From IMG/VR virus record IMGVR_UViG_2600254997_000002: a stretch of 7,781 bases of DNA; one strand, 5' to 3'. Shown here in pieces: positions 1-7,781 of the stretch; position 1 is the first letter of the stretch; each line of letters begins with the position of its first letter. The position numbers and the translations under genes were made by a program. The notes beneath the pieces were generated by a model. The model saw only the letters and a list, made by a program, of their open reading frames with translations, searched no databases and had not been told where the DNA came from. The DNA is from a virus (lineage: Monodnaviria; Loebvirae; Hofneiviricota; Faserviricetes; Tubulavirales; Inoviridae).

Positions 1-335
<335 letters not shown>

Positions 336-548
336 ATGAAAAAAGAAACAAAGCGCGGAGACACAACCGTAAGGATTAACGAAAACAGAAAACTGGAGCT
401 AAAACGAAGAGTGCTGGAAATCGGTAATAAAACAGGTGAGCTACTAAAACCATCAGAGATAGTAAACCACTTAATAGACAACTACTTAGATGATGCGGTG
501 AAAGATCTAATAAGCAAAGAAGAACTTAAGAAAAAAAAGGCAATGTGA
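336..548 (+). CDS. putative small DNA-binding regulator (70 aa), possibly ribbon-helix-helix-like; repressor candidate
   Basis: The track ORF begins at TTG 333; the first ATG is 336 with SD AGAGG at 322-326. Predicted short beta strand (TTVRIN) followed by two helices and a Lys-rich tail. Divergent from the phage operon, which is the usual position of inovirus repressors. Followed by a terminator at 635-662. Confidence 0.5.
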   Translation: MKKETKRGDTTVRINENRKLELKRRVLEIGNKTGELLKPSEIVNHLIDNYLDDAVKDLISKEELKKKKAM

Positions 549-634
549 TCCCTTTTCCTGCATTCAGCAGACTACCCGCGAAGGATCGAAAGGATACGGT
601 TTAACTGGAAACCCTTGAGTTTCCGTTGACTCTA

Positions 635-662
635 CCCCCGTGTTACAGGACGGGGGTTTTCT
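635..662 (+). terminator. rho-independent terminator downstream of the 70-aa regulator gene
   Basis: Stem CCCCCGT (635-641) / ACGGGGG (650-656), 8-nt loop, then TTTTCT (657-662). Confidence 0.6.
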
Positions 663-700
663 CCGACCTGCAAACATAGCCCCGCTCATCCGTAACGGCA

Positions 701-794
701 GACGACGAATCATCATCATCGTGATCGTCGTCCGTCGTCACGGCAGGCGCTCCCGTCCTCGACCCTGCGGGCGGGTGCGGCTGGCGTGACGACG
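701..794. other. pair of adjacent GC-rich hairpins (candidate packaging signal or origin structures)
   Basis: Hairpin 1: GACGACGA (701-708) pairs with TCGTCGTC (725-732). Hairpin 2: CGTCGTCACG (733-742) pairs with CGTGACGACG (785-794), with further interrupted GC pairing inward (744-746/781-783, 748-750/777-779, 752-758/769-775). Confidence 0.4.
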
Positions 795-860
795 TTCTAC
801 TTCCCTTTTCTTCTTCATCGGCGTGCTGGCGTCACAGATACGTCAATACACAACAGAAAA

Positions 861-966
861 CGACACAGTGCGCACAATGGCGTTATGTGTAAAAAGGCCA
901 CTGCGGTGGAGAGTATCGCAGCGGCCTTTTCAACATAACGCGTGTCACATTATGCGCACTGTTATC
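861..966. other. candidate XerCD-dependent attP: two inverted dif-like sites flanking a GC hairpin
   Basis: Plus strand 867-893: AGTGCGCACAA-TGGCG-TTATGTGTAAA. Minus strand 960..928: AGTGCGCATAA-TGTGACACGCG-TTATGTTGAAA. Compared with E. coli dif as I recall it (GGTGCGCATAA-TGTATA-TTATGTTAAAT). The two sites are an imperfect inverted repeat around the 896-926 hairpin. Confidence 0.5.
889..926 (-). terminator. rho-independent terminator for the minus-strand phage operon (weaker in the plus direction)
   Basis: 10-bp stem GGCCACTGCG (896-905) / CGCAGCGGCC (917-926), 11-nt loop. On the minus transcript the stem has one G.U wobble and is followed by UUUUU; on the plus strand there is an A.C mismatch and only TTTT. 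Confidence 0.5.
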
Positions 967-1220
967 AGGACTGATGAAAACCGAAGACCAGTCATCACCA
1001 GAATTGCTGTAACCCATCAATTTCATCAACTGGCCACATCAATGCATGGACGACTCACGCCTTGCGTCGTTCGTCTCGCTAACTGCCTGTTTAAAGGCGG
1101 TCTGGCAGGCGGCGCGTTGCGCTGTCTCCTGCTGCTCTGTAATCTCTCCCTGGCTTCGGCGGTCAGGCAGCTGCATCACATGAAACATCATCATGCCGCC
1201 TTACATGCCGCGTTGCGGCA

Positions 1221-3535
<2,315 letters not shown>

Positions 3536-3851: not shown

Positions 3852-5501
<1,650 letters not shown>

Positions 5502-6611: not shown

Positions 6612-7781
<1,170 letters not shown>

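Follow-up and report, generated by a model that had tools for sequence, protein, structure and literature searches.

Known intergenic regions of filamentous phages combine a few signals that act as folded single-stranded DNA (ssDNA). No inovirus can do without an origin for the complementary strand and a signal for packaging, and in the Ff phages (M13/f1/fd) these are found after gene IV as a packaging-signal hairpin (A), which is long, imperfect and fixed in orientation, and two minus-strand-origin hairpins (B and C). In phages that integrate at the chromosomal dif site, such as CTX-phi, a phage attachment site (attP) is also present, and an attachment site made of inverted XerC/XerD sites has been proposed for Ypf-phi and CUS-1 (PMC4266046). 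The subject of this report is positions 549-1221 of a stretch of 7,781 nucleotides (IMG/VR record IMGVR_UViG_2600254997_000002, here called the window), the minus strand of which holds a full inovirus gene set. With a probability of roughly 60% we read 549-1221 as a non-coding, cis-acting region of a dif-integrating (CTX-type) Escherichia coli inovirus, which acts as folded ssDNA on the packaged minus strand and the parts of which have the roles proposed below. This reading builds on the structures of the region, their conservation and covariation, the crossover point at attP and the failure of relatives to conserve a short open reading frame (ORF).

Like the Ff intergenic region, the locus is a non-coding block of ssDNA hairpins after the secretin gene, on the viral strand, in fixed orientation and with adjacent hairpin pairs. 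It differs in having no sequence similarity to the Ff region, in being interrupted by attP, in holding parts that are common to plasmids, and in the regulator gene and promoter region that lie between the block and rep. Distant blastn against the phage collection revealed no similarity of the window to the M13 and IKe intergenic regions or to G4. With CTX-phi attP(+) and Ypf-phi/CUS-1 it shares two inverted dif-like sites that fold in the plus-strand ssDNA, exchange on the XerC side with dif regenerated at one prophage end, and tandem prophage copies at dif, adjoining hipBA. The differences from these phages are the E. coli host, central regions of 11 nt versus 5 nt, which leave a 6-nt bulge, and a terminator-like hairpin as spacer between the sites. 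Records of the phage collection show no nucleotide similarity except for an rstR-like regulator: megablast gave no match to the window, and distant blastn gave only this regulator, short gene fragments and one repeat. The kind of region is ordinary, while the hairpin 2 family and the post-secretin element described here appear to be undescribed in the searchable literature; they define two conserved cis elements for a clinically common group of dif-integrating E. coli inoviruses.

Structures of the region and the attachment site

The region is bounded by the ends of the assembly operon and of the regulator gene. A preliminary description of this DNA had placed in a GC-rich block (660-1220) two adjacent hairpins, an attP-like palindrome at 861-966 and a small ORF, which it considered as possible cargo, and had regarded the whole as a filamentous-phage non-coding region with ssDNA structures. 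The positions were all correct, and the general view is supported. GC content was 55.3% in 660-1220 versus 44.1% in the whole window, rising to 65.8% in 690-800 and to a peak of 77.4% in 733-794; the right edge of the block is soft, with the secretin gene at 48.1% overall and 50-54% in places. The following features were recognized.

1005-1221 (approximate), minus strand: post-secretin element, conserved structured non-coding DNA (19 unique copies aligned)
1039-1194, minus strand: ORF of 51 codons, an open frame inside the post-secretin element
928-960, minus strand: dif-like site 2, AGTGCGCATAA-TGTGACACGCG-TTATGTTGAAA; strand exchange with chromosomal dif
892-930, no strand assigned: apex of the attP hairpin, 14-bp stem AAAAGGCCACTGCG / CGCAGCGGCCTTTT, 93% complementary, with A and T runs on either side
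867-893, plus strand: dif-like site 1, AGTGCGCACAA-TGGCG-TTATGTGTAAA (XerC arm, centre, XerD arm), as read from the sequence
795-850, minus strand: hairpin 2 flank, purine-rich on the viral strand; the plus strand is pyrimidine-rich (...CCTCCGTCCTCCTCCCCTTATCTTCTTCA in relatives)
733-794, minus strand: hairpin 2, a conserved ssDNA hairpin with an invariant apex at 753-774
701-732, minus strand: hairpin 1, GACGACGAATCA...TGATCGTCGTC, the variable companion of hairpin 2
634-660, plus strand: terminator-like hairpin, ACCCCCGT / ACGGGGGT, a perfect 8-bp inverted repeat followed by TTTT, after the regulator gene (333-548)

Inverted repeats were found at 701-718/722-739 and at 733-758/769-794 (26 nt, 85% complementary). 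When the minus strand of 680-800 was folded as ssDNA, exactly these two adjacent hairpins were obtained at -34.7 kcal/mol, as compared to a mean of -24.8 for shuffled sequences (z = -3.6), and none of 200 shuffles folded as well. A search of all Rfam families at E <= 1 returned only a chance-level thermometer match over 698-788, and the match count of a promoter/terminator scan was no higher than in shuffles.

Window 560-1260 is 100% identical to a sequence of E. coli RIVM_C037166 (L001), in which it spans the junction of two tandem prophage copies of ~7.7 kb adjoining hipBA. At the left prophage end, ...ATTTAACATAATATACA|TTATGCGCACT, window 961 onward follows, and the phage XerC arm (TTATGCGCACT) adjoins the centre and XerD arm of dif. 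At the right end, ...ACATAACGCGTGTCACA|TTATGCGCACC, host DNA comes next, and it is the XerC arm of the host (TTATGCGCACC) that adjoins the centre and XerD arm of the phage. The crossover is thus within or at the border of 950-959, and dif is regenerated. Hybrid sites at both ends place it at the XerC arm of 928-960, on the minus strand. Since these junctions come from a genome with an identical copy, 861-966, previously only "attP-like", is a real attP of the CTX type.

As ssDNA the palindrome 861-966 is predicted to fold at -38.7 kcal/mol versus -14.1 for shuffles (z = -9.1). Based on comparison to E. coli dif (GGTGCGCATAA-TGTATA-TTATGTTAAAT), the XerC arms of the sites at 867-893 and 928-960 match at 9/11 and 10/11 positions, respectively. 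The two sites are inverted and pair arm to arm in the predicted fold, with the 6-nt bulge in the middle. The top strand is the one that XerC exchanges; together with the junction position this fits the minus strand as the integrating strand, and we infer that the packaged strand is the window minus strand. By analogy with the phages named above, integration would be carried out by XerC/XerD on an ssDNA substrate. The hairpin apex (892-930), which is kept in the relatives L012 and L003, is probably a bidirectional terminator between converging transcription units, judging from its stem and the flanking A and T runs.

A few sequences resemble or adjoin this site. A few IncF plasmids contain, next to a gene of the STM4504 family, a sequence with 81-84% identity to window 868-937, which comprises site 1 and the apex (for instance L018:3001-3069); these matches may be a dif-like site or a phage remnant. 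In AF60-type prophages (L002:10300-10500) a 199-nt insert between window positions 850 and 851 encodes a 45-aa hydrophobic peptide (MHDMILDLLMKYLIAGSLFGMFLFSVITIVLPIVLRAHNKINRSND), and further small hydrophobic ORFs are located directly before attP in L012 (965-1138) and L003 (2553-2759). Two of the three were scanned and had no PHROG match. The position of small cargo in this group is before attP, not at 1039-1194.

The post-secretin element and the frame inside it

The DNA under the 51-codon ORF is the most conserved non-coding element of the phage group, a fact which the preliminary description had missed. On the viral strand the element begins with a stem-loop, ATGCCGC-AAC-GCGGCAT (1221-1205), followed by a GGCGG/CCGCC stem (1200-1196 with 1162-1158) that encloses an invariant TTTCAT, by an invariant ACAGCGCAACGCGC (1125-1112), by CTG (1108-1106), and by more invariant blocks down to TTGATGAAATTGATG. 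Across the 19 unique copies the invariant blocks are separated by variable stretches, with one-base insertions and deletions that are not multiples of three. Both stems show compensatory changes, namely ATGCC/GGCAT versus ATGTC/GACAT in the first and GGCGG/CCGCC versus GGCCG/CGGCC in the second. A long-range pairing of 1094-1113 with 1195-1214 proposed by RNAalifold was rejected because the GGCCG variants pair locally with CGGCC and not with the distal block. The element is found in many E. coli inoviruses that differ in Rep types and regulators, always at the 3' border of the assembly operon and immediately behind the secretin gene (or traX). Between the window and UTME-13 it is 86% identical, as compared to 42% for the adjacent secretins. 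The two tandem copies of RIVM_C037166 differ by eight substitutions and one indel within 35 nt (window 1078-1112 versus L001:4795-4830), with only two further single-base differences in the ~260 nt compared; this cluster looks like a recombination patch between element variants.

The ORF at 1039-1194 exists as described, with 51 codons and the translation given for it, and it does follow the secretin stop, at a distance of 26 nt. Its AAGGCGG, which had been taken for a Shine-Dalgarno-like sequence, is separated from the first ATG by 1 nt and from the third by 7 nt, and is in fact the 5' arm of the covarying GGCGG/CCGCC stem. AF60, E200139 and JNE112863 have the C-terminal half in a shifted frame, strain 300709 retains only 19 codons, in 2017.17.03CC and 2012C-4221 the ORF is closed, and the same invariant ACAGCGCAACGCGC block is read in different frames among relatives. 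Where the frame is kept, 13 of 16 codon differences are non-synonymous and three synonymous, and the differences fall 4/8/8 by codon position, with no third-position bias. No Pfam or PHROG family was matched. In favor of a real small protein, cargo or accessory, are a frame that is open over 51 codons in both the window and UTME-13, a recurring N-terminal MMxFHV...RRxxGE string, and a minus-strand ORF call by PGAP in some genomes, but PGAP calls the opposite strand in others or makes no call over the element. Such a protein is very unlikely. Conservation at the DNA level, an alignment of non-coding type and a frame that is not kept among related phages lead us to conclude that the ORF is almost certainly not a gene but an accidental open frame. 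RefSeq "hypothetical proteins" are found at window 1042-1245 (plus strand) and at the homologous positions of L003 and L012-L016, called on the plus strand, on the minus strand or not at all; calls of this kind over 1039-1245, on either strand, should be replaced by a non-coding annotation.

A link to plasmid replication was obtained for the first part of the element. In ~3,200 IncF-type plasmids a locus downstream of oriR shows homology to window 1149-1221 (74-75 nt, 76-78% identity; E = 7e-6 against 7.3 Gb), and the matching segment of pSLK172-2 is found 776-849 bp past the repA stop. The viral-strand equivalent of the IncF locus continues, outside of the match, into CGGCGTAAGCCGG-TACTG, which closely resembles stem-loop I plus CTG of phage G4, where the record's annotated primer start reads CGGCGAAAGCCGCCGTCC-CTACTG. 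Past this G4-like stem-loop the homology resumes with CCTGCCAGACC in both sequences. In R1, leading-strand synthesis is initiated at a "G site", which depends on primase and lies ~400 bp beyond oriR; a site of this kind was reportedly placed downstream of oriR in R1/R100 by Masai and Arai in 1989, Bernander and co-workers (1992; listed in PMC4980987) being named alongside them for R1, and Nomura and co-workers (1991; cited in PMC6854812) are said to have dealt with G4-type primase-dependent single-strand initiation (ssi) signals of plasmids. A literature search on the G site and G4-type ssi returned nothing usable. The resemblance to the G4 origin and G4-type ssi consists of the homology of 1149-1221 to an IncF locus with a G4-like stem-loop and TACTG, on the strand on which priming would be expected, and of the fact that phage element and IncF locus are both series of stem-loops. 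It differs in that a phage segment with a GCGCAACGCGC hairpin and then CTG replaces the G4-like stem-loop/TACTG; this hairpin, with 3 nt and CTG behind it, is invariant in 19/19 element copies although its stem is only 4 bp. No direct similarity of the element to phage G4 itself was found. The IncF link, a matter of homology, supports a priming signal but is no proof of one; if it holds, the element would connect complementary-strand synthesis of these phages to the priming-site region of IncF plasmids.

Hairpin 2 and the assignment of roles

Hairpin 2 is a structure under selection. Its plus-strand apex reads CCGTCC TCGACCCTGC GGGCGG (viral-strand loop GCAGGGTCGA), and the form CCGTCC-TCGnCCCTGC-GGGCGG is identical in all copies. 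The lower stem has been rewritten with pairing retained in Escherichia inoviruses, in tiny rolling-circle plasmids and in Pandoraea inoviruses. The variants include GGCAGGCGC/GCGGCTGGC, GGCGCGCGC/GCGTGCGGC with matched one-base deletions, a perfect 27-bp stem CCGCCGGAACGGCAGTTGC.../...GCAACTGCCGTTCCGGCGG and the GC-only stems of Pandoraea. Both sides have changed in 10/24 pairs and 83.9% of cells are paired, a covariation score reached by 0/500 shuffles and lower in slid controls. The preliminary description had named conservation of the hairpins among relatives as a critical point; for 733-794 the covarying stem and invariant apex bear it out, while for 701-732 only a part is kept. The 3' half of hairpin 1 and its ATCATCATCAT core are retained in the E. 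coli copies, but the 5' arm is lost in close relatives, being replaced in AF60 and L030, and the whole hairpin is absent from a 2751-bp plasmid. The 795-850 flank is conserved along with hairpin 2 in E. coli phages and small plasmids, and a purine-rich counterpart is present in the Pandoraea copies. Hairpin 2 has 10 outer bp (733-742 with 785-794) which are restricted to this lineage. They arose by five substitutions in seven bases at window 785-794 (GTTCCTCCG -> GTGACGACG), giving a perfect 10-bp extension, a pattern such as would be expected from templated correction of a quasi-palindrome.

Related prophages have copies with 83-96% identity, as do a prophage at sanA, E. coli plasmids of 1,959-2,755 bp and a phage remnant that resides on plasmids of ~100 kb. 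When collections of viruses, genomes and metagenomes were scanned with the apex motif, many inovirus prophages of Pandoraea were added, together with further small contigs from gut metagenomes and an element with Rep_1 in a high-GC contig. Apex matches in high-GC genomes and metagenomes that had no extended stem were treated as chance matches inside genes. Most of the genome and metagenome copies were counted without their gene context; in every context examined hairpin 2 was oriented opposite to the genes, and it co-occurs with three initiator families (Rep_trans, G2P-like HUH and Rep_1). Searches of E. coli and plasmid sequences found no copy in intact theta plasmids, and a literature search for the hairpin sequence returned nothing usable. 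In the Pandoraea phage L024 hairpin 2 is located where the secretin ORF ends, shortly before the Rep gene. The position directly after the gene IV equivalent is thus taken by the post-secretin element in the window and by hairpin 2 in the Pandoraea phage. The Pandoraea homologue (L024:2157-2330) overlaps the last predicted secretin codons, and the AT-rich conserved stretch between it and the G2P-type rep gene (CTAAATTTATATCCGTAACACTTAACG, viral strand) is a candidate plus-strand origin.

The small E. coli plasmids (L004, L006, L009, L010 and L005) each encode one of three unrelated rolling-circle Rep proteins and share a module of ~600 nt with a conserved 75-aa ORF and hairpin 2 with its flanks. 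The block shared with the phage corresponds to window 699-821, hairpin 2 and flanks being the only sequence which the plasmids and the phage have in common. At least 9 of 15 plasmid-bearing genomes also carry an inovirus prophage of the group, as compared to 65 of 5,426 overall (1.2%), counts that are uncorrected for clonal relatedness. A palindromic segment of these plasmids (L004:1405-1540; L125:1654-1791) is ~75% identical to the IncF "RepA4" region downstream of repA, where the copy reads TTGTCAAC..CTGAATCG...CGATTCAG..GTTGACAA. It may be another priming signal. The IncF counterpart occurs in ~740 E. coli genomes at ~220 bp from the phage-matching locus; that the plasmids share the phage's own IncF-related element was ruled out, the IncF segment being a different one.

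The roles which we propose can be followed along the minus strand from the secretin stop. The post-secretin element (1221-1005) would most likely be a multi-stem-loop signal for complementary-strand priming, related to the IncF "G site" region, and may also carry the packaging signal. At attP (966-861) the inverted dif-like sites would form a forked hairpin in which XerC exchanges one strand with chromosomal dif, the apex doubling as transcription terminator. In the hairpin block (850-690) a conserved factor, probably of the host, would recognize the invariant apex; the favored role is that of a second origin for the complementary strand (single-strand origin), of a cassette type exchanged among rolling-circle replicons, with a packaging signal a close second. 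The terminator of the regulator gene (660-634) would complete the series. Hairpin 2 resembles the single-strand origins (sso) of rolling-circle plasmids in its fixed orientation, its conserved apex, its occurrence with three Rep families and its character of a Rep-independent module with a selected ssDNA structure in unrelated rolling-circle replicons. To our knowledge it has none of the ssoA, ssoT, ssoU or ssoW sequence motifs, and unlike those origins it has also been found in inoviruses of two genera. As a single-strand origin it would represent a new type, one that works in Escherichia and Pandoraea replicons.

A possible but more tentative alternative is that hairpin 2 is the packaging (morphogenetic) signal, the post-secretin element being the sole complementary-strand origin and the 2-kb plasmids being packaged by helper inoviruses. 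Hairpin 2 is one long imperfect hairpin of ~62 nt in fixed orientation, as is the Ff signal, and its place in L024, where the secretin ORF ends, recalls that of the Ff signal behind gene IV. The contexts examined are inoviruses, small rolling-circle replicons and their remnants; the co-occurrence of plasmids with prophages and the restriction of their common sequence to hairpin 2 and its flanks point the same way, and the different IncF-related palindrome could supply the small plasmids with a single-strand origin of their own. The window Zot/pI is 38% identical to that of the Pandoraea phage, a kinship among the assembly proteins that can be read in both directions. An apex that stays unchanged at this distance suggests a host reader and not fast-evolving phage proteins. 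Also speaking against packaging are L003, which has a pI 43% identical and no hairpin 2, the copy that precedes a Rep_1 gene by ~280 nt in a high-GC contig with no recognized inovirus gene, and the lack of correction for clonal relatedness in the co-occurrence counts. The movement of hairpin 2 among rolling-circle replicons, whatever their Rep family, fits a single-strand origin. Taken together, the data on 701-794 fit a host-read complementary-strand origin slightly better than a packaging signal, and two host-read priming signals are ranked slightly above an arrangement in which the post-secretin element primes and hairpin 2 packages. The further step, that hairpin 2 is a packaging signal common to E. 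coli inoviruses and the 2-2.8-kb plasmids and that the latter are satellites in inovirus particles, is doubtful. The plasmids would then be a counterpart of RS1 and TLC in Vibrio, and the apex would be what the assembly machinery recognizes in Escherichia and Pandoraea phages alike. Were hairpin 2 to package, a satellite-helper system of E. coli would be exposed and a handle for phagemids of these phages gained; as it stands, the hairpin is common to tiny rolling-circle plasmids and the prophages with which they co-occur.

Two other explanations are unlikely. The post-secretin element might act as RNA, either as a 3' untranslated region element or 3'-derived small RNA of the assembly operon, or as an Xer accessory sequence. 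It is transcribed, lying between the secretin stop and the terminator-like attP apex, and it is on the XerC-arm side of site 2, the side on which the accessory sequences of cer and psi are found. However, it had no Rfam match at E <= 1, its distance from attP varies from 40 to 260 nt with no adjacent attP in L016 and L037, and the IncF homologue adjoins oriR with no Xer site seen beside it in the plasmids examined. Cer-like accessory sequences were rejected on the grounds that this spacing varies while the element stays with the secretin gene. About equally improbable is that hairpin 2 is a double-strand origin with the Rep nick site in its invariant loop. HUH-Rep nick sites usually show an invariant loop on a GC-rich stem that covaries, and in L024 and L170 the hairpin is just upstream of the rep gene, but it is found with three unrelated initiator families, it lies ~1 kb from rep in the window, beyond the regulator gene, and AF60 and RIVM have the same Rep protein yet a different outer stem and hairpin 1.

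Several points weigh against the roles which we prefer. The folding of the post-secretin element is only modestly better than that of shuffles (z = -2.3 and -1.1). The IncF homology consists of the two flanking stem-loops and the CCTGCCAGACC block, without the G4-like stem-loop/TACTG, and in the place of the latter the phage has no more than a GCGC/GCGC hairpin of 4 bp with CTG behind it. The equation of the IncF locus with the R1/R100 "G site" is our assumption, made on its position downstream of repA. The limitation of hairpin 2 to inoviruses and co-occurring plasmids also fits a packaging signal. Finally L003, a nearly complete related phage genome, has the post-secretin element without hairpin 2, which is thus dispensable in some relatives. 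The two elements may overlap in function, and the post-secretin element may carry both functions in L003.

Regulator end and remaining genes

The terminator-like hairpin at 634-660 is conserved in AF60 and in the sanA prophage L008 and presumably terminates the regulator gene, as its position and T run suggest. The genes of the window are as follows.

333-548, plus strand: small regulator gene
1221-2480, minus strand: secretin
2477-3535, minus strand: Zot/pI
Minus strand: g6-like gene (DUF2523)
Minus strand: coat gene and receptor-binding (g3-like) gene
6612-7781, minus strand: Rep_trans initiator

The regulator (333-548) has ~70% DNA identity with rstR of CTX-phi. In genomes with an identical 560-1260 the regulator differs from that of the window (333-548 versus L001:19556-19756), and identity starts at ~528, within the last regulator codons. 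This has the look of an immunity-module swap whose breakpoint falls where the regulator gene ends. The g3-like gene contains at window 4200-4460 a long run of Gly-Thr/Gly-Ser repeats with 63% GC, the opposite strand of which has long spurious Pro-Val-rich ORFs. The length of this repeat differs between the RIVM_C037166 tandem copies, where the gene measures 1,614 and 1,668 nt.

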